A program made the position numbers and the translations under genes. The notes beneath the pieces were generated by a model that worked only from the letters and a program-made list of their open reading frames with translations, searched no databases and had not been told where the DNA came from. This document shows, one piece after another, positions 14,456 to 59,545 of a stretch of 64,000 nucleotides of DNA (position 1 is the stretch's first letter; the number at the start of each line of letters is the position of its first letter). The stretch lies in the NCBI GenBank assembly GCA_942492815.1, contig OW818658.1, positions 5,996,284-6,060,283 on the forward strand, written 5' to 3'. The DNA comes from Candidatus Hydrogenedentales bacterium (GTDB taxonomy: Bacteria; Hydrogenedentota; Hydrogenedentia; Hydrogenedentales; JAEUWI01).

Positions 14456-14516
14456 ATCGGACTGATCAGACTGATCGGACCGATCAGATCAGTCCAATCC
14501 GTCTGACCGGTCGGAT
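14456..14516. repeat. GATC-rich palindromic element (GATCAGAC(T/G)GATCGGACCGATC family), copy A; overlaps the stop of the downstream minus-strand gene
   Basis: ATCGGACTGATCAGACTGATCGGACCGATCAGATCAGTCCAATCCGTCTGACCGGTCGGAT. It encodes the C-terminal SDRSDGLD plus the stop of the 14489 gene. Confidence 0.85.
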
Positions 14517-16303
14517 AGGCTATATTGTTCTGGCACCACACCATCGCGCAGGCCGGCAAAGTATCCCGCCGCCGCCGCCATGGCTCCGCGACCGCATTCG
14601 CGCCCGATAGGACGGCTTGCCACGGTGTCTACCCGGGGGTGAACGCCACACATCAACCGCCCGAGCCCGCCATCGTCCGCGATATCCTGATAGGTCGCCC
14701 ATTGGAGGGTGACGGGTTCCGAAGGGGCCTCATCGAAAGGCAACTCCGTCACGATCCACTCCATCAAGCCGCCGGGCACGTAGACGTCCTCCGTATACGC
14801 CTCCATCACTTCCTTGAAGCTCCAGCCGAAGGCCGCATGTCCGGAAGTGTAACCCGGGAAAGGTGGCGTTACAAACGTCGGATGCTGATAGGGCATCCAG
14901 TCCTCCGGAAGCATCCAGCCCACGCCCGAATAGGGGCCACGCCACGCCTTGATCTTTACCCTGCCCACCTGCTCGCCCTCGGGCCCCGCGAGCGGGTCGT
15001 CCTCGCCGATTAACTCCACCACACCTTCGCGCAGGGGCAGTTGGTTGTACTGGCCGAGCCAGCGGATCGCTGTGATGGGGCGCACCCAGTCGTATTGGCG
15101 TTTCACGTCCCACACCGCGATCGCCGTGTCGTGCATGGCGCCGCCCAGTGCGAAGTAGAGCTTCACATCGTATTCGAGATCGTGATGCGCGGGCTTGTTG
15201 GCTGGTTGTGCGTTGACGAGGCCCCCGCCCGCCAGCACGTCGGTCGCGATCTCGAACCACCAGGGCCCCGGCATGTTGAAACGGTTCCCGTCGAGAAAGG
15301 CCGCCTGCGCCCGGTAGTAGTCGCCGCGCCGGACAAAGTTGTCGGCGTAGGCCTCGCCCGTGGCAGGATTCACGGGGTGCCCCGTGCCGTCGTCGGTGGG
15401 AAAAGGATTGTTTCCGCGAACACCCGGCGAGATGTTGATCAACTCGCTGCCCAGACCCTCGGCGGGATCGAGGGACGCGCTGTAGACCAGCACCTCCATA
15501 AAGTTGTCGACAAATTCCCCCATGGTGGCGCCGCCGAATTGAGGCGGCGCACCGGGGTCGATGCGGAGACCGGACTCGTCGTAGGGCGCGAGGGCGAAAG
15601 GCGTCACGAAACACCATTGGGGCGTGAGGAATGGTTGCACCTCGCCGTCCGGCATTCGGATAGGCTGCCAGGCATTGATATCCATGATGGCGGGCGTCCG
15701 GTAGTCCAGTTCCAGCGGCGGATTCACCGACTCGTAGCCACTGGTGTCCCTGTAGTCACCCGGTTCATTGGCCCCGTCGTCCTCGCAGAAATCCAGCACG
15801 ATCCGGGCAATTTTCGCGCCCAGCGCCTGCGCGGGGGATGGCCTGGGATTGCCCAGTTCGTCGAGATAGCCCAGCGTCCGCATGTGTACCCGAAAGGCGG
15901 CATAGGCCTCATAGCCCGATGTCCCCGGCGGGTCGTCCGCCAGCACCTTGAAACCCTCGCGCAGTACCGGGTACACCGCGTGACTCAGGGTCTCCGCGAC
16001 ATTCTCCAGGGTCTTCGGCCCGGCCTCGCCCTTCAGCCGCTTGCCGGTGAAATAGCCCGACGCCGTATCGTCGTAGACGGCCCAAGCCTCGTACATCGCC
16101 GCGCTCGCGTGCCACAGTTTGCGCGCCTCCACCGTGGGTCCCTGCGCCTCCGCACGCGTCGCTTCGAGCGCGAGACGCATCCAAGCCTGAGAGAGGTCGT
16201 TCAGCCGCGCCGCGCGCTCGACCCTGGGGCAGCCACTGAGGCCCGCCAGAAGCCCCAGGCCGATGCAGAGGACTCCGAGTCTGCGGGTAAGCGGGTATTG
16301 CAT
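14489..16303 (-). CDS. vanadium-dependent haloperoxidase / PAP2-superfamily-like lipoprotein
   Basis: PGYTSGHAAFGWSF and CGVHPRVD motifs are characteristic of vanadium haloperoxidase/acid phosphatase. Lipobox LAGLSGC. Start taken at MQYPL. Confidence 0.6.
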   Translation of the reverse strand: MQYPLTRRLGVLCIGLGLLAGLSGCPRVERAARLNDLSQAWMRLALEATRAEAQGPTVEARKLWHASAAMYEAWAVYDDTASGYFTGKRLKGEAGPKTLENVAETLSHAVYPVLREGFKVLADDPPGTSGYEAYAAFRVHMRTLGYLDELGNPRPSPAQALGAKIARIVLDFCEDDGANEPGDYRDTSGYESVNPPLELDYRTPAIMDINAWQPIRMPDGEVQPFLTPQWCFVTPFALAPYDESGLRIDPGAPPQFGGATMGEFVDNFMEVLVYSASLDPAEGLGSELINISPGVRGNNPFPTDDGTGHPVNPATGEAYADNFVRRGDYYRAQAAFLDGNRFNMPGPWWFEIATDVLAGGGLVNAQPANKPAHHDLEYDVKLYFALGGAMHDTAIAVWDVKRQYDWVRPITAIRWLGQYNQLPLREGVVELIGEDDPLAGPEGEQVGRVKIKAWRGPYSGVGWMLPEDWMPYQHPTFVTPPFPGYTSGHAAFGWSFKEVMEAYTEDVYVPGGLMEWIVTELPFDEAPSEPVTLQWATYQDIADDGGLGRLMCGVHPRVDTVASRPIGRECGRGAMAAAAGYFAGLRDGVVPEQYSLSDRSDGLD

Positions 16304-16400
16304 GTGTGGTCTCCTCGCCTTCGAAGCACCCGGCTTCAATCGAGGATACAATGTCGCGAGGGGGCCCATGGAGTCAAGAAGGAGACCGAATACGTCACGC

Positions 16401-17747
16401 TCAGGCCAGGCTGCACACCTGATTGCGACCGTGTCGTTTCGCGTCGTACATGGCCTTGTCCGTGAGGTTGATCAGGGCGGCGCTGTCCTGTTCGCCCGGC
16501 TTGTACTGGGAAAGACCGATGCTGCACGTCACCACGAGCGAGCGGGCGTTGGGAAAACGAAATTCCTGTTCGCCGATCTTTTCGCGCAGGCGGTTGCTGA
16601 AGAGTTCCGCCTTGTGCAGGTCGGTATTGATCAGCAGAATCATAAACTCCTCCCCGCCGTAGCGCCCGGCAATGTCGGGGCTGCGCACAGTCTGCTGGAG
16701 CGTGCGGGCTACGGAACGCAGCACGGTATCGCCCGCCTCGTGCCCATGGCAGTCGTTCAACTGCTTGAAGTGATCCAGGTCGAACATACACAGCGTCAGG
16801 GGCTGCTCATAGCGCCGCGCGCGGTTCAACTCGGTCTCCAGGGACTGCATGAGGTAGCGGCGGTTGAAGAGGCCGGTGAGCTCGTCCCGCGTGGCCATCT
16901 CTGCGAGGTGGCGGTGGGCGGACTGCAATTCCTGGCGCAACCGAACGCGCTCCAGCGCCGCGAGAATGCTCTGGATCAGGCGGTCCTGATTGAGCCCCAA
17001 CTTGGGCAGATAGTCGCAGGCGCCGCGGCGCACCGCCTGGGCAACGAGGTCTTCGCTGCCCTGGCCGGAAATGAGGATGAACGGGGGCAGCTCGATCTGG
17101 AGCGCCAGCCGGGTGAAGAGATCAAGTGAGGTGCCGTCGGGCAATTGATAGTCCGAAAGGATCAGGTCGAAGCGCGTCGCCAGCAAGGCCTTTTCGGCGC
17201 TGGCGCAATCCGTCGCGCGACCCAGATCCAACGTGGCGGACCAGGGCTCGAGCAGATCGCACACACTCGAAGCAAAGACGTCCTCGCCCTCCACGATCAA
17301 CACGCGGTAGCGGCCTTCCGGCACATCCATCGAGGTGGCTGAATTCACGGGAAGCAGGAGGTCCGCCTGCACGTGCTGGATCCGGTCAATGATCTGCTGC
17401 ACCTGTTTCGCGTGCATTTTCAACGCGGAGATTTTCGCACTGAGGGAGGGCGTGCATGAGGAGTCCGTTTCGAGATCGGCGCTGACGCGCAGCAACTCCA
17501 CCAGGGGCTGATCGAGCTCGGCGGTTGTGGCCCCCGCCATCTGCAGCACGACTTTCAGCCGCTCTTCTTCAATGCGCCGCTCCGTGGCCTCGGACATCTG
17601 TCCGCGAATCAGGGCAAGTTGGTTGGAGCGCAGGCCCAATTCGTGGGTCACGGCGGCAAGTCGCTGCTCCGTGCTCCGGAGCTTGCGCTCGTACACTTCC
17701 GTGCTTTCCCAAGTGTCCCGGGCATCTATACCACGGTGTTCTCGCAT
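16401..17747 (-). CDS. response-regulator receiver + GGDEF diguanylate cyclase with an N-terminal coiled coil
   Basis: REC domain (RVLIVEGEDV...DLILSDYQLPDGTSLDL). GGEEF active site; RYGGEEF. Confidence 0.88.
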   Translation of the reverse strand: MREHRGIDARDTWESTEVYERKLRSTEQRLAAVTHELGLRSNQLALIRGQMSEATERRIEEERLKVVLQMAGATTAELDQPLVELLRVSADLETDSSCTPSLSAKISALKMHAKQVQQIIDRIQHVQADLLLPVNSATSMDVPEGRYRVLIVEGEDVFASSVCDLLEPWSATLDLGRATDCASAEKALLATRFDLILSDYQLPDGTSLDLFTRLALQIELPPFILISGQGSEDLVAQAVRRGACDYLPKLGLNQDRLIQSILAALERVRLRQELQSAHRHLAEMATRDELTGLFNRRYLMQSLETELNRARRYEQPLTLCMFDLDHFKQLNDCHGHEAGDTVLRSVARTLQQTVRSPDIAGRYGGEEFMILLINTDLHKAELFSNRLREKIGEQEFRFPNARSLVVTCSIGLSQYKPGEQDSAALINLTDKAMYDAKRHGRNQVCSLA

Positions 17748-17982
17748 GTGCCGCCTAGCCGCACCCCGGATTCGGGTGCGCGTGCCCGCCGGACCCCTGC
17801 CAGGCCGACGAGTTTTTACCGTTCACTGAAAGCATTATACACGTATTCCTGAAAATAGGGGGGATACATTTGAATACCTTCCGACTTCAGCGTAAGAATA
17901 TATACCGTTTGACTTCTAACTGTTTTGTGGTACACTTGACCCATACCAGCGTGGTACCCTGTGGATTGAGGAGGCCCTTACC

Positions 17983-20900
17983 ATGAACAATCGCGATGAG
18001 ATCAGCCAGATTCGGGCGGAGCTGGAGCGCGTGCAGCGAAACGTCACGCGCCTGGCCCAACGCCTCGATGACGTGGAGGCACGGGAGAGTGCAGGCGCGG
18101 AACCGCCGGTGGCAACGGTCAAAGCGGTGACGCCGGAAATACCGCCGCAGCTGCCCGCTTCTGCCTTTGCACCCGCGCCCGCCGCAGTGAAGAGCGACGC
18201 AGCGCCTTCCTTCCCGCCCGAGGCGAAGGTTGTCCCGACGACCCCAATACCTCCGGTGCTTCCCCGACGTCCCCTCGTGCCGCCGCCAGCTCCCAAAGCG
18301 CCCCGCCGTTTCGGCCCGCCGGAAGGCATGGGCTGGGAAATGGCCCTCACCACCTGGTGGCTCCCGCGCATCGGCGTGCTCATGCTCGCGCTTGGCACCG
18401 TCTGGGGACTCACCTTCATTTCGAATGAATACACCGATTCGCCTTGGATGCCCTTTGCGCGCGTGGCCCTGGGCTATGCGCTCGCGTTGGGTCTTGGCGG
18501 CATCGGCTGGAAACTGGAAAAGAAATACGCGGGTTACGCCCGGGTACTCATGGGCGGCGGCTTCGGGCTCCTCTACTTTGTCACCTTTGCCACGTGGTAC
18601 ATCCCGCCAACGCGCATCGCACCGAGCCAGGAGTTCACCCTCCTGTTGCTCGCGCTGTTGGTCACCGCGTGGGGTGCCGTGGCCCAATGGCGCAAATCCC
18701 AGCTCATCGCTTTGTCCATGACGCTCCTCGGTCACTTCACCGTGGCCCTGTCCACCCTTTCCCTCGAAAGTCCGAGCCGCGCGGCCGTGGGTGGCTTGTT
18801 GATCCTCGGTATCGGCAGCGCTTTCTTCCTAATCCGCAATGGCTGGTACAGCGTGGCCATGAGCGCCATGATCGGCAGCTATCTCAACCAGTTTTTCTGG
18901 CTGGCCCAGGCGCCCCCGAGTGGCGCGCCCATGGATTTTGCGCTGGGCATGTTGGTGCTGGCGACCTATCTCGTGCTCTATGCCCTGGCCGATCGCTTCA
19001 CGCCCCACGAACACGCCGCCACGCGAACGCGGACCCGCAATATCTACTGCGGTCTGAACACGGGCGGTTTCCTGCTCCTCGGCCTCGCGCTGATGCAGGG
19101 CTTTGAATTCGCTCAGGGGAAAGAGTACCTCCTCTACTTCGCCACAGCCCTCTTTGCCGCGGGCATGGGCTGGAGCTACACACTGCGCCCGGCGCCCGAA
19201 AGCAGGCACACACCCGATTCCCTCGCGAACATCTACTACACCAAGGCCTCCATGCTGGCCACGGCCGGCCTGGCCGCGTGGCTCGATGGTCCTTCCGTGA
19301 CCCTCGCCATCGCCCTGCAATCGCTCGCGCTCCTCGCGGCGGCGCGGCGTTCTCAACGCCCCGTGGGACGGCTCCTGTCCCTGGGCACGGCGCTGGTGGC
19401 CTTCGTCCACGGCTGGTACACCCTCGATCAGGGCGGGTTTCCCGCCTTCGGTGATCCTGGCCACACGGGGCAGGTGCTCGTGGGGCTGCTCACGATGTCG
19501 GTGTTCTGGGCCATCGCGGAGTTGTATCGCGTGACGCCGTGGCACACCTTTTCCCAAGGTCCCTGGGGGGGCCCGGATCTTTTCCGCGACTTCTGCGCCA
19601 GTCTTGAGATGGTGGCGCAGAAGGAAGGCGCCCCCATCCTTCCGAGCCGCATGATCTTCTCCCATGTGCTCGTGGCCTTTGGCGCCCTGCTCATCGCGGG
19701 CCAGGCCCGCGCCCTCTTTCCCCTGTACTACAGCGCGCCCGCCTTCTGCGTGCTCGGCCTGGCGGCAGCGGCACTGGGTCTGGCCCTCCGTTCCGCGCCC
19801 GTGCTCGCGGGCTGCGCATTCTACCTGACCTTCGGCCTCGCATGCTGGCTGATTCAGATCCTCGGCGGCCATGCCCCGGAACCCAATGGGCTCCTCGTGG
19901 CCGTGGCGTGCGTGGCCGCCTTTGTCGCGACCTCGGAACTCTTCCGCCGCTTCCTGCCCGCGCGCTTTGAGACGCATGCGCTGGACAGCGGCATTCAGGG
20001 CGCCTGGAAACGCAACCACCTGCTGCTGGCCCACCTCACGGCCGCTGGCGCGGCAGTGATTATCGCCACGGGCCTTCAGGAACGCACCGGTCCCCCCATG
20101 GCGCTCCTCGGCGCCGGGGCCGTCGCTCTCCTCGCCACAGGCTACGCCGCCGCCACGGGCGCGGCCAACCTGGGACTCCTCGCGGTGCTGTTGACGGCTT
20201 TCACCATCGTCGTATCGCCTCAGGTCGCATTCGAGACAATAGACGGCTTCCGGGCCCTTCGGGGCGTAATCCTCGCCGCCGCAGCCGCCACAGCGGTGGA
20301 GCATCGCGGATGGGGCGTCCGGCGGCCTGGCCTCGCCTTTCACCGCCTGTTGCCCATGCCCTATCTGCTCTATGGCTGCGCGGCGTGGAACACCATCTGG
20401 ATGGTCGATGCGTACTGTCCCGACCATCTTCATGCCGTTGTCCTCGCTGGTGCCGCAGCCGCCTTCGCCGTCGCGCTGCTGGTACTTCACGCACGCGCCA
20501 TGGCCAGTCTGGGCGCGGTCCTCATGGCGGTGGCGCTGGTGGCGTGGCTGTCGAATCAAAGTCTCGCGGAAACCCGCTGGTGGCACATCGGAGCCCTCGC
20601 CATTGTGGCGCTGTCCATCGCCGGCGATCGCTTCCTCACCCTGCGCAATCCCTTCAACAGACCCTGGCCCGCGCGGGTGATGCTCTGCTGCGCCTGGGTG
20701 GTCTGCCTGGCCTGGAACGGGAGGATGGGCGATCACGGCTGGCACTACAGTGGCATGGCCCTCATCGCCGGGGCCTTCCTGGCCTATGCCGCCCTCTTCC
20801 GAAGCCGCACCGCCGGCGCTTTGTCCCTCCTGGCCGGAGCCCTCGCCACCTTTCCGCTTATCGTCGCCACGGAGCACGGCATGACCCTCGGGGCGTTGTG

Positions 20901-21366: not shown

Positions 21367-21395
21367 CGGAAAGGTGAGAGAATTCAGCATTCCCT

Positions 21396-21469
21396 CTTCC
21401 GTGCTTTTCCGTGAAATTCCGTGGTCAAAAATTTATTGACCACGGAAGGGCACGGAATTTCACGGAACG
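21396..21469. promoter_or_regulatory. long imperfect stem-loop with three direct TTCCGTG repeats and an inverted partner (CCGTGAAATTCCGTGGTCAA / TTGACCACGGAA...GGAATTTCACGG)
   Basis: Seen directly, 30 nt after the stop of the 17983-21366 gene and upstream of the small membrane-protein gene. Candidate terminator/attenuator or regulator-binding site. Confidence 0.45.
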
Positions 21470-21862: not shown

Positions 21863-21870
21863 CAAGAGAT

Positions 21871-25311: not shown

Positions 25312-27774
25312 CTAAACCATCCGCGCTACACCCGAATCCCCATCCACCTCAATCATAGCCCCCGTCGTAATTCGCTCCGTCGCCTCCGGCACGCCGATGA
25401 CTAACGGAATCCCATATTCCCGTGCAATGATTGCCGCGTGGGACAGCAGCCCGCCACGCTCGATTACGAGGCCCGCCACGTGACGCAGTACCGGGGTCCA
25501 GGCGGGATCCAGGCAGGGCAGCACGAGCACGCACCCTTCGGGCAGACACTCGGTCAGGGCATTCAATTGCTGAAAAACCTGGGCCGGGCCTCGCGCCACG
25601 CCTGGTGAAGCGCCCACACCCCGGAGCACCGTGGCGGTCGGGTCGTCGCCCTCCGGTTTCCACGGCCCGAGGTGGGTCGGTCGCCGCACGGGCACGTTGA
25701 TGCGGTGCTCACGTCTACGCTGAGCGATGCGGGCCGGGTCGGCTGCGTGCCCCTCGGTCAGGGCCTGTCGCAATTCGTCCCACGTGATCCACCAGAGGTC
25801 ATCGGCCTTTTCCAGCAGGCCTTTCGCCTCCAGGGAGCGGCCCGCGCTCAACAACAGCGCGCGCTGTCGCGCGAGAATACGCTCCCAATGAAATCGCTGT
25901 TCCTCGCGCATTTCCAGCAGGCGTGCGAGGACGTTGCGGGACTGTGGCGATGTCATGGCGAGCGTTGGATGTGTCGAATCAAGCTCCGTACTCACAGAAG
26001 TGTCGTCATTCCCGCGCATGCGGGAATCCAGTGCGTTTGCGCAGTCTGCGATGTCCGGTCGCTGGATTCCCGCTTTCGCGGGAATGACTGAAGCGTCGAA
26101 ATCTTTTTCACCAGTCGAGTCTGGGCTTGAATCGAGAGACCCGAAAGGCGGGATCTCCGCCCAGGTCGGCGCGGCATAGTCCAGCGATGAGGATCGATGG
26201 CCGCAGTTGCGCAGGAACGCCGCCACGGTGGTCTGATCGCCGACGTAGGCTACCTCACGGGCGGCATTGGCTTCGGCCGTAACCAGGCGCACCTGCCCGT
26301 GCAGCCGCCGGCGCAGACTCTCCCGGAGCGCGCGGGGCAGCGGACGCGTCAGCATCAGAAAGGCGTTGTAGGCGTAGTCCGCCAGCATGATGCTCCAGCG
26401 GTGCAGGCACAGAAACTCTTCTGTCAATGCGTCCAGTTGCGCCCAGGCCTCGTACCAGACCTCCGCATCGTCGCCGTCCTTCGCCTCGGGAATCGCGGCC
26501 AGCCGCGTGCCGAGGCCATCGCGGAATCGATCCCAGGCGCGGAGGTTGCCGAGCACGCGTTTGCGCTCGCGCCAGAGCACGGGAAGTCCGGTCCAGAGCA
26601 AACCGGGACCGGGCAGGCGACCCGGCGCCTTGCCTGCGGGATAGAGCTGGCGCAGGTCGGGCGTGAGCAGCCACGCGGGCAGATTGCGAAGGAGCCGGTG
26701 GTACGCCTCCAGGGACACGTAGACTTGTCCGCTAAAATCGAAGGTCAGGGGCGCTGGCACGGCGATACCGCGCAACTGAAGCGCGTCTTCAACGCCGGTG
26801 CGCACGATGAGGGGCAGCAGCGTGGTCCGCGTGATGGGGTGAATCGGTTCATGGAATCGCTGATCTAGAAACCACGACGTGGCCGGCACGGGCGGGCGAA
26901 GCGAAGCCTCCAGCGCGAGGCGCGTGATGGGCCGGGCCTGAAGGAGCCAGAGCCCCGAAGCGTCCGCGGCCCATTCGATGTCCAGGGCGGCGTCGAAAAC
27001 TTCTTCCAGCTTGAGCAGCCAGCCGAGCAACGCCGCGACGAGTTTTTCATCAAGTTGATCCGGTCCCTGCGCACCCGTTTCGACCTGCGCGATCGCACTG
27101 CTCTCGATATCCACTTCAAAGCGGCTGGGCGTTGCGGTCCCATCCACCAGAGCGCCGCACTCCCCGAGGACGGCCTCTATCAGCACCCGATCATAACGCG
27201 CGCGACTTGGATGGGCGGAGAATGCAACACCGGAGAGGACAGGCGTGATACGGCGCTGGAGGATGACGGCCATGGCGCCCGGACCATGGGCGTTGCGGTA
27301 GGCCGAGGCACGCTCCGCGCGTGCGCTACTGAGCACGGCATCGATCGCCTCGGGAAGTTCAGCCGCGCTCGCGCAGAACAAGGTTTCGTAAATTCCCGCA
27401 GCGGAGGCGCCGGACTGATCTTCCGACAGTCCGGAGGAGCGCACGGCCAAGCCTTCGCCATTGGGACTTAGCTCCGCAAAGAGGGCGTCGAGCGCCAGGC
27501 GAGATTCAGCGGTGTCTGGATGGAAATGGACCGCCGCGTCCGCCGGCAGAACCACCCAGGGGGGCACGGGTGCCCCGGCCGCGTGGAGCCGCAGCAGGCC
27601 AGCGGCCTTCCCGCCGATGGACAGCGGAGACTCGCCATCAAGATCTTCGGGTTTTTTGAAGAGCGCGTGATCCAAGGTGCCCTGGAATTCTGGCGGATGC
27701 ACCGCCACGGGATGGGTCGAATGGGTCGAATGGGTCGAAAAGGCCCGCAAAGTTTCGAGCCCCCTCGCTGTCAA
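25312..27774 (-). CDS. PEP-utilizing phosphotransferase family protein (PpsA/PPDK-like ATP-grasp N-domain + C-terminal swivelling phosphohistidine domain; rifampicin-phosphotransferase-like architecture)
   Basis: C-terminal GGLLSHAAIIAREYGIPLVIG is the PEP-utilizing mobile-domain His motif. N-terminal GGKAAGLLRL is ATP-grasp-like. A low-complexity insert encoded by a palindromic repeat separates the two. The true start is uncertain (possibly a non-ATG start downstream of the STHSTHSTH repeat). Confidence 0.75.
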   Translation of the reverse strand: MTARGLETLRAFSTHSTHSTHPVAVHPPEFQGTLDHALFKKPEDLDGESPLSIGGKAAGLLRLHAAGAPVPPWVVLPADAAVHFHPDTAESRLALDALFAELSPNGEGLAVRSSGLSEDQSGASAAGIYETLFCASAAELPEAIDAVLSSARAERASAYRNAHGPGAMAVILQRRITPVLSGVAFSAHPSRARYDRVLIEAVLGECGALVDGTATPSRFEVDIESSAIAQVETGAQGPDQLDEKLVAALLGWLLKLEEVFDAALDIEWAADASGLWLLQARPITRLALEASLRPPVPATSWFLDQRFHEPIHPITRTTLLPLIVRTGVEDALQLRGIAVPAPLTFDFSGQVYVSLEAYHRLLRNLPAWLLTPDLRQLYPAGKAPGRLPGPGLLWTGLPVLWRERKRVLGNLRAWDRFRDGLGTRLAAIPEAKDGDDAEVWYEAWAQLDALTEEFLCLHRWSIMLADYAYNAFLMLTRPLPRALRESLRRRLHGQVRLVTAEANAAREVAYVGDQTTVAAFLRNCGHRSSSLDYAAPTWAEIPPFGSLDSSPDSTGEKDFDASVIPAKAGIQRPDIADCANALDSRMRGNDDTSVSTELDSTHPTLAMTSPQSRNVLARLLEMREEQRFHWERILARQRALLLSAGRSLEAKGLLEKADDLWWITWDELRQALTEGHAADPARIAQRRREHRINVPVRRPTHLGPWKPEGDDPTATVLRGVGASPGVARGPAQVFQQLNALTECLPEGCVLVLPCLDPAWTPVLRHVAGLVIERGGLLSHAAIIAREYGIPLVIGVPEATERITTGAMIEVDGDSGVARMV
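26005..26089. repeat. intragenic REP doublet: two self-palindromic 25-mers in inverted orientation (GTCATTCCCGCGCATGCGGGAATCC ... GGATTCCCGCTTTCGCGGGAATGAC), inserted in frame within the PEP-utilizing enzyme gene
   Basis: Seen directly. It encodes the low-complexity peptide ...SVIPAKAGIQRPDIADCANALDSRMRGNDDTS... between two folded domains. Confidence 0.85.
27713..27740. repeat. tandem 9-mer (GGGTCGAAT x3) at the 5' end/N-terminus of the PEP-utilizing gene (encodes STHSTHSTH)
   Basis: Seen directly. Confidence 0.85.
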
Positions 27775-27798
27775 CTATCAACTGTCAACTATCAACTG
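27770..27798. repeat. tandem heptamers CAACTAT/CAACTGT x4, overlapping the stop codon of the SpoU-family gene
   Basis: GTCAACTATCAACTGTCAACTATCAACTG. The minus-strand TGA stop of the 27785-28315 gene lies in the first heptamer. Confidence 0.85.
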
Positions 27799-28349: not shown

Positions 28350-28433
28350 TGTTACAGGGACAGCAGGGACGACAGGAATAAAACAGCCTGGGTCCCTGCC
28401 TGCCGTCTCTGCTGTCCCTGCTGTCCCTGCGGC
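28350..28433. repeat. REPIN-like NNCAGRGAC inverted-array hairpin, copy 2
   Basis: TTACAGGGACAGCAGGGACGACAGG ... CCTGCCGTCTCTGCTGTCCCTGCTGTCCCTGCGG. Confidence 0.85.
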
Positions 28434-28516
28434 TTCGCGCCAGTCACTCGCCACCTCCAAATAAAAACCGGCCTTCCCGCAGTGGAGAAGGCCGGTCGTA
28501 CATTCAAGAAATGGGC

Positions 28517-32594: not shown

Positions 32595-32600
32595 TCGCGG

Positions 32601-32676
32601 ATTAGTCCGCGGGCCAATCAGACTGATCAGACTGATCGGACCGTTCCGATCAGTCTGATCCGTCCGATCGGTCTGA
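32601..32676. repeat. GATC-rich palindromic element, copy B
   Basis: CCAATCAGACTGATCAGACTGATCGGACCGTTCCGATCAGTCTGATCCGTCCGATCGGTCTGAT. Confidence 0.85.
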
Positions 32677-32778
32677 TGGGCATCGCTGCCACTGTCGGCT
32701 TCTCGCGATATCCTTCCCTTTTTCGCTATACTGTCGGGCCATTGCACACCCCAACCACCCGCCCGAGGAGTTTTCCCC

Positions 32779-41042: not shown

Positions 41043-41511
41043 GGCTGTTTCCCTTTCTGTTCGCTTAGCGAAGCGACGCCACCATAGTACCCCACACGCC
41101 ACGGAATGGAAAATGACCTGGCGACCAAACCACGCCGTTGCTCCTTGCATCCTGATTCACAAAAAAAAGACCTGTCACCACGAAGGCACGAAGTTCACGA
41201 AGAAAAACGGGAAGTCGGACGTTTACCCACGCTTGGCATGCCGTCTTTCGAATGATCTCTGCACGCAAAGGCGCAAAGATATTGGGGACGTCGGTTCAAT
41301 ACGTTTTGCCTGACTTACCGGGTAGAATCGCGGCTGCGAAATGTTTCCTTCTCCCTTTTTTCTTCGTGCTCTTCGCGCGTTTCGTGGTGAAAGTTCTGGT
41401 TGCGGCCCGAGGCCGCTTCAATTACCTCGTGGTGGGGTTTCCCGGCCCCGCGTTGCCCCGTCGCGCCGCGCTCCATTACAATAGCGGTCTTCGCAGTCCC
41501 GAAAGGCCCCC

Positions 41512-43599: not shown

Positions 43600-43903
43600 T
43601 CAACAGCGGCCTTCAATGAAATTGTAAGATGTTGCAATTAAAGGTGTTGCAAAAACTAAATCAATTTTTTTACTTTTGAGACCGCCGATGAGCCTGTAAA
43701 ATAAGGGCGATTTCGCACCCAAAAAAATTTTAGCATTGAAAATAGGGCTTGACAAATCATTATTTAGACGTTAATCAATACACCATTGCTGAAGGCGCTT
43801 CCGGTAGTTGCGCGCAGCACCGGAGAGAGCATACGTCTGTCGCGTATCTTGGGCCGGCGCCGACAGCTTCCAAGACCAATTCGATTTCAAAGGAGAAACG
43901 ACC
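43600..43903 (+). promoter_or_regulatory. AT-rich promoter/leader region of the HU-like gene, with a TTGACA -35-like hexamer at ~43749 and two TTGCAA direct repeats at ~43633-43655
   Basis: Local GC drops sharply. AGGAG ribosome-binding site 8 nt upstream of the ATG. The -10 element is not convincing. Confidence 0.35.
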
Positions 43904-44224
43904 ATGACCATTAAGAAAGCCAAGCCGACCGACAAGGCCCTCACGAAGTCCAAAGTGATCGAAGCCCTGGCCGAAGAAACCCAGCTTTCGAAGAAAGACG
44001 TCGGTACTGTCCTCGCGGCGCTGACCGAGCTGTCCTACGCGCAGGCCGCCGTGGGTTTCACCATCCCCGGCCTCGGCAAGCTGGTCGTCCAGCAGCGCAA
44101 GGCGCGCAAGGGCCGCAACCCGAAGACGGGCGAGACCATCAAGATCGCTGCCAAGAAGGTGCTCAAGTTCCGCATCGCCAAGGCCGCGAAAGACGCGATC
44201 ACGCCCGCCAAGGAAAAGAAATAA
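43904..44224 (+). CDS. HU/IHF-family DNA-binding protein with a Lys-rich N-terminal extension
   Basis: VIEALAEETQLSKKDVGTVLAALTE...GFTIPGLGKLVVQQRKARKGRNPKTGETIKIAAKKVLKF is a classical HU fold sequence. Confidence 0.85.
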   Translation: MTIKKAKPTDKALTKSKVIEALAEETQLSKKDVGTVLAALTELSYAQAAVGFTIPGLGKLVVQQRKARKGRNPKTGETIKIAAKKVLKFRIAKAAKDAITPAKEKK

Positions 44225-44248: not shown

Positions 44249-44290
44249 GACCCGGCCCGGTCTTCACTTCGGTGAGGCCGGGCTTTTTAA
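44249..44290 (+). terminator. Rho-independent terminator of the HU-like gene
   Basis: CCCGGCC...GGCCGGG stem followed by CTTTTT. Confidence 0.6.
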
Positions 44291-44413
44291 TTGACAATGT
44301 ACAATTGACAATGAAAAGACTGAGCAACCTGCCAGCCAGAGATTTTCCGCCCGATTCTCATTGTCAATTGTCAATTGTCAATTGTCAATTGTCAATTGTC
44401 AATTGTCCATTGT
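44289..44413. repeat. heptamer repeat element: AATTGACAATGTACAATTGACAATG, then a 45-nt spacer, then (CAATTGT)x7 in inverted orientation. The tandem part overlaps the 3' end of the TolC-family gene.
   Basis: Seen directly. The tandem heptamers encode the C-terminal ...NNGQLTIDN of the 44385-45803 gene. Confidence 0.9.
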
Positions 44414-45803: not shown

Positions 45804-45927
45804 GGGGGCAGACTCCCGAAAGGGTTATGGCAGCGCCTGATTTTAATGCCCCCGGCTTGGGGCAGTCAAAGGCCCGCCCTTGCACGCCCATCCGGCAAAG
45901 AGAAATCAGCAGTATCGGAGCATATCC

Positions 45928-46647
45928 ATGAGTGAGCTCATCATCGTGCGCCACGGCCAGGCGTCCTTCCTTTCGGGCAACTACGACCAGCTTTCCGAGC
46001 TCGGCGCAGAGCAGACCCGACTCCTGGGCGAATTCTGGGCCGCGCGGGGCCTCCGCGCCGCGCGCTTCGTCGTGGGTCCGCGTAAACGACACCAACAATC
46101 GGCCGATGCCATCCTGGCCGCACTGGCCGACGCGGATTTGGCCCCGATGGAAGTGGTCGACGATGATCGGCTCGATGAGTTCGACTGGGACGGCCTCTAC
46201 CGCTATGCCAGCAGCACCCTCGCGGAGCGCGACCCCGCCATCGGCGCGCTGAAGCACGCCTTCGAATCGGCGTCCGACATCACGGCGAAGCGGCGCACCA
46301 TTCAGCACTATATGGAAGCCGTCACCGCGCAGTGGGCGGCGGGGGCCTTTCACGAAGACGGTCTTGAAACCTGGGACGAGTTCCGCAGCCGCGTGGAGGT
46401 CGCCATGAGACAACATATACAGGATCTGCCGAGCGGGAGCCGCGTGGTCCTGGTGACCTCGGGCGGCGTGGCGGCGGCCTCGGCGGGTCATGTGCTCGGT
46501 CTGGACGCCGCGCGAACCCTGGGACTCATCTGGACTTTGCGCAATGGCGCCCTCGTGGAGTACCTCTTCGGGAAGGGCCGCATATCTCTCAGCAGCTTCA
46601 ACAACGCGCCCCACCTGCCCGAAGCGCGGCACTGGACCTATCGGTAG
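45928..46647 (+). CDS. histidine phosphatase family protein (phosphoglycerate-mutase-like)
   Basis: N-terminal LIIVRHGQASF (RHG catalytic motif). Confidence 0.75.
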   Translation: MSELIIVRHGQASFLSGNYDQLSELGAEQTRLLGEFWAARGLRAARFVVGPRKRHQQSADAILAALADADLAPMEVVDDDRLDEFDWDGLYRYASSTLAERDPAIGALKHAFESASDITAKRRTIQHYMEAVTAQWAAGAFHEDGLETWDEFRSRVEVAMRQHIQDLPSGSRVVLVTSGGVAAASAGHVLGLDAARTLGLIWTLRNGALVEYLFGKGRISLSSFNNAPHLPEARHWTYR

Positions 46648-46655: not shown

Positions 46656-46683
46656 AATCAGACGGATCAGATCAGTCCGATGA
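46656..46683. repeat. GATC-rich element, short copy C (AATCAGACGGATCAGATCAGTCCGATG)
   Basis: Seen directly. Follows the stop of the 45928-46647 gene. Confidence 0.7.
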
Positions 46684-50926: not shown

Positions 50927-51000
50927 CAGAGACAACAGGGACGTCAGCGACAGCAGGGTACGCAATTCCTGCTGTCGCTGCTGTCTCTGACGTCCCTGAA
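50927..51000. repeat. REPIN-like NNCAGRGAC inverted-array hairpin, copy 3 (between dprE2 and dprE1)
   Basis: CAGAGACAACAGGGACGTCAGCGACAGCAGGG ... CCTGCTGTCGCTGCTGTCTCTGACGTCCCTGAA. Confidence 0.85.
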
Positions 51001-52642: not shown

Positions 52643-53449
52643 TCACTGCTCCGGTGTCTTCGGGGACTTGTTCTCCATCAGGATATCATCCAGAATCAGG
52701 ATTCGTTCGCACCAGATCATGAGCAGGGTGCACAGGTAGCGGCGGCCCATTTTGCGCAGGCGCAGGTTGCTGATGCCCCAGGTGCGGCCGGACCAGGTGA
52801 TGGGGACCTGGGCAATGCGGTAGCGCCGGATCAGGCTCGACAGCGACATTTCGATAGTGATGTTGAAGTGGGCCGCCTGCAGCGGAAGGATGCTCTGGAT
52901 CACATGGCGCCGGTAAACCTTGAAGGCGTTGGTGAGGTCGTTGTGGTGGGTCAGGAAGAGCACCTGCATGGCATGGTTCACGATTCGGTTGACCACCAGC
53001 TTCACGGGCGGATAGTGGGTGACACTGCCGCCCTTCATGAAGCGCGATCCGAAGACGCAGTCGTAGCCCTCTTCAATCTTGCGATAGCAGCGCACCACGT
53101 CCAAAGGGTTGTCCGAACTGTCCGCCATGACCACGGCGAGCACGTCGCCCCGGTAGTGGTGTAGTCCGCAGCGGATAGCGCGGCCGAGGCCGCCGGGGGG
53201 CCAGTTGTGGACCAGGTGGATCTCGGGGATTTCCTTCGCCTTCTCCTCGATCACCGCCGTGGTGTTGTCCGTGCTGTTGTCGTTGACCACGAGGAGCTCA
53301 AAGGGGATAGATTCCGCGCGCAGGGCGGCGGCGAGGCTTTCCAGCGTGGGTATGATGTTCTTCTCTTCGTTGTACGCGGGTATAAGAACGGAGTAGAGAA
53401 GGGTATTCTTCTCCACCGGCTGCAACTTAGATTCGGCCTTCGAAACCAT
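52643..53449 (-). CDS. GT2 polyprenyl-phosphate glycosyltransferase (DPM1/GtrB/ArnC-like)
   Basis: [24 protein letters not shown] and DSSD motifs of the GT-A GT2 family. C-terminal extension. The ORF-track 5' extension was rejected in favour of the internal Met. Confidence 0.75.
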
Positions 53450-54488: not shown

Positions 54489-54631
54489 AAACGCTCCCGA
54501 TGAACGGCACGATACGTAGAAGGAAGAAAACGGCGAAATGCGAGACGCCATTCTAGCGCACAATCGTGCGAGGCTGTCAACCGGCGCGGCGACCCCGAGG
54601 CGGTGTGTTTGGCGCGAGTCGACTTCCTTCA

Positions 54632-54735
54632 CTGCAGGGACGAGAGCGACATCAGGGACGGCAGGCTGCGATGGCCGGAATTTGCTGTCGTTTGCAGAGT
54701 TCCTGCTGTCTCTGCCGTCCCTGACGTCCCTGCAA
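54632..54735. repeat. REPIN-like NNCAGRGAC inverted-array hairpin, copy 4 (divergent promoter region between the two epimerase genes)
   Basis: CTGCAGGGACGAGAGCGACATCAGGGACGGCAGG ... CCTGCTGTCTCTGCCGTCCCTGACGTCCCTGCAA. Confidence 0.85.
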
Positions 54736-54800
54736 CCATCGGCCAGATGCTACGGCTGCTTTGCATTGCCGGTCTCTCGTACCGTTCCCGGAGCCCGCCC

Positions 54801-55865: not shown

Positions 55866-56016
55866 CGGGGGGCGCAGTTTACACGGTCAGATTACACAGT
55901 TTACGCCCTATCCTCTTTTCGGCATGGGAGTTAGACCGAGAATAGGATTGACCGTTTGGGCGGTCGGTGGTATCATGAACATATCTGAAACCCTTGAAAT
56001 ATCGGGAGATGCAAGC

Positions 56017-57045
56017 ATGAAGAAGCCCAGTGGTGTGGAAATGAAGTCCAGCGCGGCCCGCGCCGGTTTCACGCTCATAGAACTCTTGACGGTAATCGCG
56101 ATTATTGCGATCCTCGCGGGGATGACGGCCGTGGCCGTGCCGCGCTATCTTGAAAAGGCCCAAGTTACCAAGGCCAAGACCAATATTGAAAACGTGGCCA
56201 AGGCCCTCGCCGCGAAGTCAGCCGAGTCAGGCAATACCACGGGCTACCCCGTGGCCTACGGCTTTGTGCTGCCCGAAGCCCGGGAAGTTGCGCCTGCCAC
56301 ACTGCTTCTCAACCCGGAGCTTTATTATCAGTTGCGCCCCTATACGGCTGAGATCGGGCTTCACCAGGATCTGAATGTGTACGAGCTACCCCGCTGGATG
56401 CTGTCGGCCTATGACAGCGACAACAACGGCCAGCTCGGGCTCCTGGAGTACTCGCCGATCGGCGAGAAGGATTCCGGCACCAATACCTATACGTTTTCTT
56501 TGGAGATGTACTCCGGTCCGAATGGCGAATTCCCGGGTGCGGGCGCGAGCAACAACCCGGCTATCGTGAGTCTGTCCGAAGTAACCCTGCAATCCAAGGA
56601 CGGCATTCAACGGCCCTTTGCCTATGTGCCCTTCAACAAGCGCCAGCTCTCCGCAATTCGTCGCTACTGGACGAATCAACTTGATGAGTTTGGTACGACG
56701 GTGGACGCGGCGGACCCCGACCTCCAGGGTCGGCTTTTCTTCCCACCGCCGAACTATGACGGATTCGTACTCGTCGGCAATGGCCCCGGTGGTACCAACG
56801 GTGGCGTGGTAGCCGATCCTCCCGCGAAGAGCGGTGCTGGCTACGATGATGCGTACGTTTACCACATGGCGGCGTTGCGCACGGCTTTCCTGGCCACGCG
56901 CGACTGGGATCGGGACGGAGTCGGTGGCGGACAGCCCGACGGCAAACGGGACTTCGACTTCGAGGCCCGCAAGGACGCGCAGGAACTGAACATGCTGCCC
57001 GACGGCACCAACGGGGCTGGTGCCTTCATCAAGGTGGTTGAGTAA
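56017..57045 (+). CDS. type IV pilin/pseudopilin-like protein with a prepilin-type N-terminal cleavage/methylation motif and a large C-terminal domain
   Basis: Motif ...ARAGFTLIELLTVIAIIAILAGM, followed by a GspG-like alpha1 helix (AVPRYLEKAQVTKAKTNIENVAKAL). 343 aa; Ser/Thr/Gly-rich C-terminal part. An alternative start lies at 56041. Confidence 0.75.
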   Translation: MKKPSGVEMKSSAARAGFTLIELLTVIAIIAILAGMTAVAVPRYLEKAQVTKAKTNIENVAKALAAKSAESGNTTGYPVAYGFVLPEAREVAPATLLLNPELYYQLRPYTAEIGLHQDLNVYELPRWMLSAYDSDNNGQLGLLEYSPIGEKDSGTNTYTFSLEMYSGPNGEFPGAGASNNPAIVSLSEVTLQSKDGIQRPFAYVPFNKRQLSAIRRYWTNQLDEFGTTVDAADPDLQGRLFFPPPNYDGFVLVGNGPGGTNGGVVADPPAKSGAGYDDAYVYHMAALRTAFLATRDWDRDGVGGGQPDGKRDFDFEARKDAQELNMLPDGTNGAGAFIKVVE

Positions 57046-57072
57046 CCCGTTATCCACATAGCACGTAAATCT

Positions 57073-57108
57073 CGCGGCAGGTCTTCGGACCTGCCGCGTT
57101 TCTTTTGG
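57073..57108 (+). terminator. Rho-independent terminator of the pilin-like gene
   Basis: CGCGGCAGGTC-TTCG-GACCTGCCGCG followed by TTTCTTTT. Confidence 0.7.
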
Positions 57109-57109
57109 G

Positions 57110-57812
57110 CCCGGGGGGGGACCGTCCTGCACGAACAAAATCGCCTTCCGCAAGTGCCGCGTTGCAACAGGAAGTACCCTCCAACCGAGGGAGATCAACC
57201 ACCCGTGCGGGACCGTCCCCCGCTTTAAAAGCGCGGGACGGTCCCGAACGCGCAGAGGTCTTGCGGCGCGCTGCCGTGATTCGCACGACCCACGGACCTC
57301 ACCCGTGACACCGTTGCCCGGACGTTCAGGACGGTCCCGTCGTAACGCGGGGACTGTCCTGCACGAACAAAATCGCCTTCCGCAAATGCCGCGTTGCAAC
57401 AAAAAGCACCCTCCAACCGAGGGAGATCAACCACGCGTGCGGGACCGTCCCCCGTTTTAAAAGCGCGGGACGGTCCCGAACGCACAGGGGGCTGCGGCAG
57501 GCTTCCGTGGTCCGTATGACCTGCGGACCTCACCCGTGACCCCGGTGCCCGGACGTTCAGGACGGTCCCGTCGTAACGCGGGGACTGTCCTGCACGAACA
57601 AAATCGCCTTCCGCAAATGCCGCGTTGCAACAAAAAGCACCCTCCAACCGAGGGAGATCAACCACGCGTGCGGGACCGTCCCCCGTTTTAAAAGCGCGGG
57701 ACGGTCCCGAACGCATAGTGTGCTTCGTCCAACCGGGTTTCACCGATCGAACCACACTACCTATCATAAATCAAGAGCCCCTGCGTTCAGGACGGTCCCG
57801 TCGTTGCGCTAT
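57110..57812. repeat. direct tandem repeat, ~240-bp unit x ~2.6 copies, each carrying several GGGAC(C/T)GTCCC palindromes (related to the MITE-like terminal inverted repeats at 37.7 kb)
   Basis: Unit boundaries at ~57113, 57353 and 57593. Motifs CGCGGGACGGTCCCGAACGC, CGTTCAGGACGGTCCCGTCG and GGGGACTGTCCTGCACGAAC recur. Confidence 0.9.
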
Positions 57813-57851
57813 ACTACGCCCCCGATGTCTCTCCACTAGAAAGCCTTTCCC

Positions 57852-58679
57852 ATGTTTCATGACTTCATCGAGCCCGGCGTTCCGGTCGTGCTCTTCTGGA
57901 TCTTCGTCTCCGTCGCCATCATCATCCAGGGCATCAGCAAATCCGGCTTTGCGGGCGGTGCGGGGATCCTGTCACTGCCGCTGATGATGCTGGTGATGCC
58001 CGTCGACAAAGTCGCGGCGACGCTGCTGCCCCTGCTGATCCTGTGCGACTTCAACGCGATCTACCACCACCGGCACAACAAGGACTGGACACAGGTGATG
58101 CGGATCTTTGTGCCGTCGTGCCTCGGCATCGTGCTGGGAGCGCTGGTGTGGTGGAAGATCGGGCGCGAGGGTGTGGAGTTTTACAGCCTCTTGATCAAGC
58201 GCATGGTGGGCGTGATCGCGATTATCTTCGGACTCTACATCGCCGCGAAGGACCAATCCATGGCGTGGGTGGCGCACCACAAGGCGGGGCGGAAGACGGC
58301 GGTGATCGTGGGTATCGTGGCCGGCTTCACGTCCACCATTGCCCACGCTGCCGGGCCCATCGTGAGCCTGTATATATACTCTCAGGGCTTCAACAAGACC
58401 CTCTTCGTGGGAACGGTGGCCTGGACCTTCACGCTGATCAACCTGACCAAGCTGCCCTTTTATGCCTGGGCCGGACTCGTGGATACGAGCGTACTCTGGT
58501 TCGACGCATGCCTCGTGGCGCTGATCCCGGTGGGCTCGTGGCTCGGCCACTGGATGCACCACCGGGTGTCGAAATGGTGGTTCAGCCGGATCATCATGGT
58601 GCTGACCCTGGTGGCGGGCGTGCAGTTGTTGTTTGACGTGCAGGTGATCCAGTGGGCGCTGGAACTGCTGGTGCGCTAA
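57852..58679 (+). CDS. TauE/SafE-family (DUF81) sulfite-exporter-like membrane protein
   Basis: 275 aa, ~8 TM. Duplicated four-TM halves with GxGGG-like motifs (FAGGAGILSLPLM, AHAAGPIVSLYI). Confidence 0.7.
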   Translation: MFHDFIEPGVPVVLFWIFVSVAIIIQGISKSGFAGGAGILSLPLMMLVMPVDKVAATLLPLLILCDFNAIYHHRHNKDWTQVMRIFVPSCLGIVLGALVWWKIGREGVEFYSLLIKRMVGVIAIIFGLYIAAKDQSMAWVAHHKAGRKTAVIVGIVAGFTSTIAHAAGPIVSLYIYSQGFNKTLFVGTVAWTFTLINLTKLPFYAWAGLVDTSVLWFDACLVALIPVGSWLGHWMHHRVSKWWFSRIIMVLTLVAGVQLLFDVQVIQWALELLVR

Positions 58680-58722
58680 GCGGGACAGACCGCAACTCAT
58701 ACTCCGGTGATTTTTCGCTGAT

Positions 58723-58811
58723 TTCAGGGACAACAGGGACTTCAGAGACGGCAGTAAAAGAAGCTCTTAACGATCTCACTGCTGTCCCTGTTGTCCCTGC
58801 TGTCTCTGCAA
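58723..58811. repeat. REPIN-like NNCAGRGAC inverted-array hairpin, copy 5
   Basis: TTCAGGGACAACAGGGACTTCAGAGACGGCAG ... CACTGCTGTCCCTGTTGTCCCTGCTGTCTCTGCAA. Confidence 0.85.
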
Positions 58812-58897
58812 CCTCCTAACGACGCCAGCGGTATGCATCGTGCCCACTAAGGTATACGCGCGCCCCCAACCCGCGCCAACCTGGAAGGACCATACCC

Positions 58898-59425
58898 GTG
58901 GAAATTGAAACGCCCCGCCTGCGATTGCGCCCCTGGCGTTTGGAAGACAAACCCGCACTGCTGCGCCACGCGGACAACCCGAACGTTTCGCGCAACCTCT
59001 GCAACATGTTCCAATCGCCCTACACCGAGGCGGATGCGGAATCGTGGATTCAGAGCTGTCTGGCCACCGAGGGCCCGTGCAGAAAATTCGCCATCGAGAT
59101 CGAGGGCGAGGTGGTCGGGGGAATCGGAATCCACCCGCGAGAGGACGTCTTGGCGCAGACGGCGGAGATCGGTTACTGGCTCGGCGAATCCAACTGGGGC
59201 CGGGGCTACATGACCGAGGCGCTCCGCGCGATCGTGATTCATGCCTTCGAGACCTTTGAGTATCACCGGCTGGAGGCGGGCCATTTCGGGTGGAACCCGG
59301 CCTCGGGGCGCGTGCTCGAAAAAGCGGGCTTTCAACTGGAAGGCTGCCAGCGCGAGCGATTCTTCAAGAACGGCGAGTTTACCGACAACATGATCTATGG
59401 CCTGTTACGTGACGAGATCGTATAA
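58898..59425 (+). CDS. GNAT-family N-acetyltransferase (RimJ/RimL-like)
   Basis: TPRLRLRPWRLED... and the acetyl-CoA-binding core (IGYWLGESNWGRGYMTEALRAI). Confidence 0.75.
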   Translation: MEIETPRLRLRPWRLEDKPALLRHADNPNVSRNLCNMFQSPYTEADAESWIQSCLATEGPCRKFAIEIEGEVVGGIGIHPREDVLAQTAEIGYWLGESNWGRGYMTEALRAIVIHAFETFEYHRLEAGHFGWNPASGRVLEKAGFQLEGCQRERFFKNGEFTDNMIYGLLRDEIV

Positions 59426-59444
59426 CACGTGACTAGCCACTCAT

Positions 59445-59545
59445 GGGACGGATCAGACGGATCGGACCGATCTGCTTGATTAGATCGGTCTGATCCGTCC
59501 GATTGACTACGCGCCGTCAATTGTCCATTGTCCATTGTCAATTGA
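59445..59545. repeat. GATC-rich palindromic element copy D (59445-59505) immediately followed by (CAATTGT)-type heptamers (59516-59545), 10 nt upstream of the ABC exporter start
   Basis: GGGACGGATCAGACGGATCGGACCGATCTGCTTGATTAGATCGGTCTGATCCGTCCGATTG, then GTCAATTGTCCATTGTCCATTGTCAATTG. Confidence 0.85.

Follow-up and report, generated by a model that had tools for sequence, protein, structure and literature searches.

Inverted arrays of a GATC-containing nonamer directly behind stop codons in Candidatus Hydrogenedentales, and their turnover between relatives

The 64,000-nucleotide (nt) stretch of contig OW818658.1 analysed here (Candidatus Hydrogenedentales bacterium, assembly GCA_942492815.1, positions 5,996,284 to 6,060,283), hereafter the window, carries about 45 genes of ordinary chromosomal type, among them those for sulfatases, BNR sialidase-like proteins, ArgS, FabH and an ABC exporter. 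Dispersed among these genes are four hairpins built of tandem 9-mers, which are designated family F1. In their 5′ arm, the unit GATC-[A/G]-GAC-N is repeated in tandem, and their 3′ arm is made of its complement, N-GTC-Y-GATC. In its wider form, GATC-N-GWC-N, the unit is a nearly self-complementary 9-mer, GATC and GWC each being palindromic. Gene context and statements of absence refer to the window and its genes, unless another sample is named.

The four F1 elements are real and non-random. The two-unit pattern GATCRGACNGATCRGAC, searched with up to two mismatches, gives 16 matches, every one of them within the four sites, against 0.18 ± 0.39 expected from 100 dinucleotide shuffles. The initial annotation of this DNA had placed four copies at about these positions, which is confirmed. 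A scan of the window finds runs of at least four GATC at spacings of 20 nt or less at three F1 sites only. Several details of that description have to be revised. The unit is a nonamer (GATC-R-GAC-N) and not an octamer; the intervals first delimited contain 4, 5, 2 and 5 GATC rather than five to eight per ~60 base pairs (bp); the supposedly shared centre TCGGACCGA is present in two copies and absent from the other two; and the GC content of the window is 61.4%, not ~65%. Over the window as a whole, GATC occurs at expectation (397 observed, 384 under a Markov model). Within the unit, G-W-C is conserved as strongly as GATC, both being invariant. The copies vary in unit number, loop and length (28–67 nt), with two to four units per arm in F1a, F1b and F1d, F1c being a stub.

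All four elements begin directly past a stop codon, as had been noted, at distances of 3, 20, 9 and 18 nt for F1a to F1d (Table 1), and lie closer to that stop than to the next start. Three of the junctions are tandem (co-directional) and one is convergent. One copy, F1d, was correctly described as lying ~50 nt 5′ of the ABC exporter ATG, beside a heptamer array. No T-tract follows any of the copies, and a terminator scan around F1a was empty. Rfam returned no match in the window at the gathering threshold. Neither a transposase or RAYT (the transposase associated with repetitive extragenic palindromes, REPs) nor a DNA methyltransferase is present among the ~45 genes, and neither target-site duplications nor defined termini are visible by eye in the F1 flanks.

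Table 1. Positions of the repeat elements and related features within the window
Feature	Position	Composition	Context
F1a	14454–14518	CTATC-GGAC-TGATCAGAC-TGATCGGAC-CGATC / loop / GATCAGTCC-AATCCGTC-TGACCGGTC-GGATAG	Between minus-strand genes for a VCPO-like protein (14489–16369) and a sulfatase (13040–14419), 69-nt gap; ancestral stop 3 nt before the element, sulfatase Shine-Dalgarno GGAG ~22 nt beyond
F1b	32612–32678	Three GAC-type and three GTC-type 9-mers, 4-nt loop; 27-nt arms 89% complementary	20 nt past comB stop (32594), ~100 nt before argS (32779); preceded by a small hairpin or degenerate unit (32597–32611)
F1c	46656–46683	AATCAGAC-GGATCAGATCAGTCC-GATG; minimal or degenerate copy, one pattern match with two mismatches	9 nt past the stop of 45880–46647, between convergent genes
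F1d	59443–59505	22-nt arms 91% complementary, 8-nt loop	18 nt past GNAT stop (59425), 52 nt ahead of ABC exporter ATG (59557)
Heptamer array 3′ of F1d	59516–59544	GTCAATT/GTCCATT, four units	Right arm of an F3-type element
F2 (five copies)	4415–4506, 28355–28431, 50927–51000, 54635–54734, 58725–58810	CAG-R-GAC-NN, 9 nt	
F3	44289–44413, 27768–27798, 59516–59544	AATTGAC/GTCAATT, 7 nt, partly inverted pairs	Also in relative L110 (4475–4610); largest pair directly past the terminator of an HU/IHF-family gene (43808–44224)
F4	21397–21467	10-mers containing TTCCGTG, three per arm; near-perfect palindrome	Convergent genes
F5	41179–41202, 41361–41386	CACGAAG ×3 facing CTTCGTG ×3, 160 nt apart	Divergent promoter region
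Hairpin-plus-T-tract terminators	~28470–28500, 44250–44290		Adjoin F2b and F3a
Non-coding tandem repeats	501–1486, 2171–3203, 57117–57715	Periods 289/185, 289 and 231 nt; 87–98% identity	
In-frame palindromic pair	26005–26088	GTCATTCCCGCG..GGGAATCCAG / CTGGATTCCC..CGCGGGAATGAC	Inside PPDK-like gene 25312–27774 (minus strand)
Short tandem repeat	27712–27739	ATGGGTCGA ×3, perfect	Directly upstream of the probable true start of the PPDK-like gene
Low-GC segment	34476–36021		Past argS

The overlap of F1a with a coding sequence has a simple origin. The initial annotation had this copy encoding the C-terminus and stop of the VCPO-like protein, and the open reading frame (ORF) does end within F1a, although only through the loss of its original stop codon. 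Seven orthologues terminate in ...GVVPEQ*, while the protein in the window continues for 11 residues (YSLSDRSDGLD), encoded by the 5′ arm of the hairpin (14489–14521, minus strand) and ended by a TGA within a CTGATC. In the related locus L324 (87% amino-acid identity), this hairpin is found at the corresponding place, and the TAA that precedes it by 3 nt is intact; the triplet in the window is TAT. Since L324 keeps the TAA and the seven orthologues end earlier, the overlap is a stop-loss read-through and not an evolved C-terminus.

Folding was evaluated with energies computed for the element alone and z-scores computed with the flanks. F1a, F1b and F1d fold strongly on either strand, at −35 to −46 kcal/mol, with loops of 3–8 nt: F1a reaches −40.8 kcal/mol on the sense strand and −34.9 on the other (z −4.8), F1b −41.9/−45.8 (z −6.5) and F1d −38.4/−36.0 (z −6.0). 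The 28-nt stub F1c folds weakly (z −0.4). At the free positions of the unit, N5 and N9, arm-to-arm complementarity tends to exceed that of randomised controls in the Hydrogenedentota and Myxococcales copies: the observed energy was attained by a fraction of 0.005–0.03 of the randomisations at four loci (L002, L028, L092 and L049), and by 0.085–0.10 for the two window copies tested.

Orthologous loci of relatives, retrieved via the flanking proteins, allow the history of individual copies to be followed. Two proteins of the window have homologues named as Candidatus Hydrogenedentes/Hydrogenedentota. A Hydrogenedentales metagenome-assembled genome (MAG) contig, L049, is ~90% identical to the window over 57.8–61.3 kb by BLAST, which identifies it as the orthologous locus; a metagenome scan with the GNAT protein gave one locus. 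In L049, F1d has exactly one extra 9-mer in each arm and is better conserved than its flanks. F1d is absent from L110, where the site is occupied by a complete F3 heptamer pair, with the left arm AATTGACAATGGAC... in the place of F1d. F1b is missing from the comB–argS spacer in L111 (94% amino-acid identity), L113 and L115 (87%), the argS-proximal part of the spacer being all that is conserved across these three. F1a is common to the window and L324 and absent in L325 (79% orthologue). No F1 array occurs in L110–L115, across about 49 kb. The F1 elements thus turn over at about 6–20% protein divergence and change by whole 9-nt units. Comparisons with the empty sites do not align cleanly.

F1 is not alone in its design. 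At least four further families of inverted arrays with units of 7–10 nt are present in the window, and F2 to F5 (CAGGGAC, AATTGAC, TTCCGTG and CACGAAG units) contain no GATC, so GATC does not define the architecture. The pattern of F2 is matched 28 times against 1.9 expected, with the G-rich arm first and spacers of 10–40 nt. F2b is retained at the same site in three genomes, including L113 and L115, where it changes at the level of units without strict compensation. F2d corresponds to a presence/absence difference of ~130 nt, being missing in L110, where F2e is degenerate. All families together place arrays at 13 of the 44 intergenic junctions. With inverted short-unit arrays at ~30% of the junctions, a type of element to which annotation pipelines pay no attention shapes the gene boundaries in this uncultured phylum. 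Canonical terminators, consisting of a hairpin plus a T-tract, adjoin F2b and F3a, which indicates that the arrays are not simply the terminators of the host.

The F1 unit extends far beyond this lineage. Among species-representative genomes, the exact two-unit pattern gave at least 109 loci, against ~17 by chance according to our own estimate. Roughly one quarter of the matches listed are coding coincidences, for example, in a conserved Streptomyces gene; the remaining matches listed are intergenic arrays, distributed over Oligosphaera/Lentisphaerae (where long arrays and hairpins occur), Verrucomicrobiota, Planctomycetota, other Hydrogenedentota, a Myxococcales MAG (eight loci), Deltaproteobacteria/Desulfobacterales-type MAGs, Thermoanaerobaculia, Nitrospiraceae and others. 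Which arm leads depends on the lineage: it is the GAC arm in the lineage of the window, in Lentisphaerae and in the Myxococcales MAG, and the GTC arm in Deltaproteobacteria/Desulfobacterota-type loci. For the 109 bacterial loci listed, the ORF context was tandem in 23 cases, convergent in 13 and divergent in four, a weak trend that is affected by spurious 'in-ORF' calls in high-GC MAGs. Oligosphaera ethanolica DSM 24202 is a cultured carrier of the arrays and, like Limisphaerales OZ260084, a complete one. In O. ethanolica (L004 1380–1445 and 1860–2180; L091, L052, L104), GATC-nonamer arrays reach 19 units, and other nonamer arrays, such as six copies of CTGTCCATA, occur as well, with Acido-Lenti-1 RNA motifs nearby; one array precedes a 16S rRNA gene by ~660 nt. 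An Rfam search of 18 array-bearing loci detected just rRNA, tRNA and Acido-Lenti-1, the latter, in the Oligosphaera loci, lying beside the arrays and not on them.

Phages also carry the unit. In IMG/VR, a 2.5-unit pattern matched 116 loci, with 16 contigs having 3–10 separate arrays, whereas the control nonamers matched 61 (GTAC variant) and 29 loci (GATC..CAG variant), almost all of them single and resembling coding repeats. Two of the contigs, L233 and L196, represent genuine fragments of phage head modules. In L233, arrays occupy seven of the nine gaps of a co-directional structural operon, with a regular layout: the stop codon, 0–10 nt, three to six GATCNGWCN units, an AAGGAG Shine-Dalgarno sequence and the ATG, the array sometimes overlapping the stop codon as TAGATC. 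Across the multi-array viral contigs, the array starts at a median of 7 nt after the stop and ends 25 nt before the next start, and no array lies between divergent genes. A blastn search with one array against cultured phages gave no match, although the low-complexity filter may mask such matches.

F1 is tentatively read here as a REP-like hairpin of inverted nonamers, evolving by slippage and acting as an RNA structure between cistrons or at gene 3′ ends. Slipped-strand mispairing would create and resize the arrays, with the symmetry between the arms being maintained. Each element would be co-transcribed with its upstream gene, and its stem-loop of 20–30 bp would begin within the footprint of the terminating ribosome, where it could provide a barrier to 3′ exonucleases or a site for a double-strand-specific RNase. 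The stem-loop may then tune the relative expression of the adjacent cistrons, through mRNA stability, processing or coupling. F1 would not be a terminator, and GATC would serve as a structural component of the unit without having to be a target of methylation. REP and BIME elements and the RNase III sites of phage T7 are intercistronic hairpins acting in such a way. The presence of arrays in most gaps of the L233 operon speaks for such an intercistronic role and against termination.

This RNA role is predicted, and several observations weigh against it. Sense-strand folding was the better in only 7 of 11 cases, so that selection on the sense RNA specifically gains no support, and arm mismatches show no strand bias either (23 sense-strand G·U, 19 A·C). 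The arms of the Lentisphaerae arrays lack complementarity at the free positions. In phage arrays, GAC and GTC units are intermingled in no consistent orientation; what these arrays conserve is the core of the unit and not its pairing, a pattern equally compatible with a protein that recognises duplex DNA. Finally, when all families are considered, array occupancy is alike in tandem (8 of 26), convergent (3 of 9) and divergent junctions (2 of 9), so the bias toward 3′ ends rests on the few F1 copies and on crude ORF calls elsewhere.

Some of these observations lend themselves to a different explanation, possible but rather unlikely in our estimation, in which the arrays are duplex-DNA sites of a cooperative dimeric protein, either nucleoid-associated or a regulator. 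Each 9-bp unit would be one site, and the convergent layout would set the geometry of the bound filament, as may be compared with the MetJ metbox, the heptads of omega proteins and the mycobacteriophage stoperators. Beyond the missing RNA-strand asymmetry, the unpaired Lentisphaerae arms and the mixed phage orientations, this explanation is favoured by the conservation of the GATC, G and C cores whatever the pairing, with N5, N9 and W varying, by the constancy of arm polarity within a lineage, by the 10–160-nt spacers that the sibling families tolerate, and by the recurrence of the unit over many phyla and phages, which suggests a conserved reader. Similar pairs in Geobacter were read by their authors as sites of a global regulator or of IHF/HU (PMC2700814), and an HU/IHF-family gene adjoins the largest heptamer pair of the window. 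Nevertheless, no candidate protein was identified; duplex binding requires neither the tight 3–8-nt loops, nor the concerted gain of units in both arms, nor the above-chance arm complementarity of this lineage; and rapid presence/absence would be odd for the control of conserved housekeeping genes.

It is also conceivable, albeit unlikely, that the arrays are a functionless by-product, namely, a self-complementary microsatellite with long units that grows by slippage and hairpin-templated copying in tolerant non-coding gaps. The copies, which vary in unit number, loop and length, point to no single master; unit numbers change between relatives; gain and loss are fast; the arrays of L233 span exactly the interval from the stop codon to the Shine-Dalgarno sequence; and the window tolerates 11 codons of translation into F1a. 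Such a process would not readily disperse one specific unit over many loci per genome and over phyla, and the control nonamers, with their 61 and 29 loci of single, coding-type arrays, differ from the 116 loci and 16 contigs of at least three arrays found with the F1 pattern. Moreover, compact phage genomes retain arrays in most gaps of a structural operon, and F2b is kept at one site in three relatives.

An extension of wider reach, unlikely to the same degree, is that GATC-N-GWC-N arrays are the cis-sites of a widespread and unrecognised factor that binds or processes nucleic acids and marks cistron boundaries directly past the stop, in phages and in hosts (Hydrogenedentota, Lentisphaerota, Verrucomicrobiota, Planctomycetota, Myxococcota, Desulfobacterota, Acidobacteriota and others). 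If true, this would be an operon-punctuation code common to hosts and phages that has not yet been described, and a common reader or processing step would constitute a new, widespread layer of operon organisation.

Movement in trans of a non-autonomous mobile element, of the MITE (miniature inverted-repeat transposable element) or REPIN type, by a transposase or RAYT that recognises terminal inverted arrays is very doubtful. It would account for presence/absence polymorphism (including the ~130-nt F2d indel), for constant arm polarity and for a dispersed, multi-copy distribution, and insertion sequence (IS) elements insert at fixed distances from the analogous Geobacter sites (PMC2700814). What speaks against it is that neither enzyme is encoded in the window, that target-site duplications and defined termini are not visible by eye while the empty sites align poorly, and that the copies are unlike in length and loop and the sibling family has unrelated internal spacers, leaving no master element.

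The suggestion of the initial annotation that the GATC clusters could be Dam-methylation-sensitive regulatory or replication-associated sites, to which pap, agn43, oriC/SeqA, P1 pac and the RctB 12-mers of Vibrio would be parallels, is now highly improbable. GATC is invariant in the unit, with four to five sites per 60 nt, and phage arrays lie near translation or promoter-proximal signals. The regulatory version finds no support in a window that encodes no methyltransferase and in which GATC is at expectation, in a G-W-C core as conserved as GATC or in siblings of matched architecture that are free of GATC. Against a role at a replication origin speak the occurrence of four copies among the housekeeping genes of 64 kb, a placement that is not origin-like, and their absence at orthologous sites in close relatives. 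Finally, factor-independent (bidirectional) transcription terminators, to which stable GC-rich hairpins right past stops and one copy between convergent genes would be suited, can be dismissed almost entirely, given that no copy has a T/U tract whereas canonical terminators exist elsewhere in the window, that the F1a gap measures only 69 nt with the next Shine-Dalgarno sequence 22 nt downstream, and that the arrays of L233 interrupt a single structural operon at most of its gaps.

The favoured reading, a slippage-evolving intercistronic hairpin, invites comparison with known repeats. A REP is a single palindrome of 20–40 nt, of fairly fixed sequence and tied to a RAYT transposase. In Enterobacteria and Pseudomonas, REP, BIME and REPIN elements are intergenic, at gene 3′ ends or in operons, and co-transcribed, and their RNA hairpins affect mRNA stability and, where they lie near the stop codon, upstream translation. 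Such elements number in the hundreds per genome; the 64 kb of the window contain four F1 copies, to which those in L049 and L324 can be added. The proposal of the initial annotation that F1 is another REP family is apt in that F1 elements are dispersed, intergenic, hairpin-forming at gene 3′ ends, and gained and lost between relatives; by general description, dispersed imperfect palindromes at 3′ ends are common to both. It does not apply in the strict sense, since the window contains no RAYT, copy length is uneven and the arms are tandem arrays with a variable number of units.

Closer in architecture are the GGGAATC heptamers of Xanthomonas (Rehm et al. 2015, PMC4692102), among which each genome has 70–75 inverted pairs in convergent arrangement. 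About 90% of the repeats lie in intergenic DNA, at a mean distance of 28 nt from the end of the preceding ORF, mainly where the genes share one direction and rarely where they diverge; related species keep the type of repeat and differ in the number of units; 83% of the positions are shared between two species, and a G-quadruplex has been proposed (PMC4692102). Like these, F1 consists of opposite-strand tandem arrays of 7–9-nt units that form stem-loops close behind ORFs and vary in unit number. Unlike the F1 unit, the Xanthomonas unit is a G-rich heptamer without self-complementary GATC/GWC cores, and it is positionally more conserved. In Geobacter metallireducens, classes 1–3 of 'predicted global regulator binding sites' are opposite-strand pairs of three to five tandem 7–9-nt repeats at variable distance (Aklujkar et al. 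2009, PMC2700814). They have dozens of intergenic copies, with several classes per genome, and are restricted to one species of the genus; their units are GTTGCTYN, TCTCCGTS[Y] and MTYCTGA, the authors regard them as putative sites of IHF/HU or a regulator, and insertions of IS elements occur alongside them (PMC2700814). Paired tandem-repeat sites and several coexisting sequence classes are thus shared with F1 and its siblings, and the unit sequences differ.

Other systems are more remote. The heptamers known as STRR in cyanobacteria and TAACTGA in Beggiatoaceae are abundant intergenic tandem repeats, patchy across phyla and suspected of a post-transcriptional role (PMC4679880). Unlike F1, they are mostly direct, oriented repeats that end just upstream of start codons, inverted pairs being rare. 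Among mycobacteriophages, Cluster A has stoperators, Cluster K start-associated sequences and Cluster O 17-bp palindromes (PMC4351075), and the GATCNGWCN arrays of L233 and L196 similarly put many copies of a short motif into the gaps between phage genes. The mycobacteriophage sites are, however, single motifs of 13–17 bp and the T7 sites individual hairpins, and neither is shared with host chromosomes across phyla. A literature search with six representative unit-junction strings of the nonamer found no relevant publication and one irrelevant match. The cross-phylum spread of the GATCNGWCN nonamer and its use in phage gaps are apparently unreported, whereas the architecture itself is already known. 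In practical terms, elements of this kind can change a protein product, the 11-codon read-through into F1a being an example; they can also mislead gene calling, and they differ between close relatives.

The surroundings of F1d and the remaining repeats of the window offer some further observations. The heptamer array between F1d and the exporter is kept in L049 and L110; a −10-like TATAAT comes next, and the ATG lies 7 nt beyond it. A TAnAAT 7–10 nt before the ATG abuts this exporter-side array, itself conserved in three genomes, and its closeness to the exporter ATG suggests a possible leaderless or short-leader start. The heptamers were considered as a promoter, as TTGTCA resembles the −35 hexamer TTGACA, and set aside in a hand check for the poor spacing to TATAAT. 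Resemblances to the CsrA (GGA) and IHF consensus sequences were considered and not adopted.

The long tandem repeats of the window are non-coding, and the 231-nt unit of one of them holds a REP-like palindrome, GCGTGCGGGACCGTCCCCCG...CGCGGGACGGTCCCGAACGC, with one copy of the unit in L110 and 2.6 in the window. In the PPDK-like gene, the in-frame palindromic pair adds ~50 residues (..VIPAKAGIQ..SRMRGND..) that are not in the L115 orthologue, and recalls the Rickettsia palindromic elements. In the long ORF call for the same gene, the ATGGGTCGA copies are read as STHSTHSTH; the start of the orthologue lies downstream of these copies. Lastly, the segment past argS has a lower GC content and may be an inserted accessory island; relatives (L111, 3491–4083) have an HTH/HigB-like toxin-antitoxin pair there.

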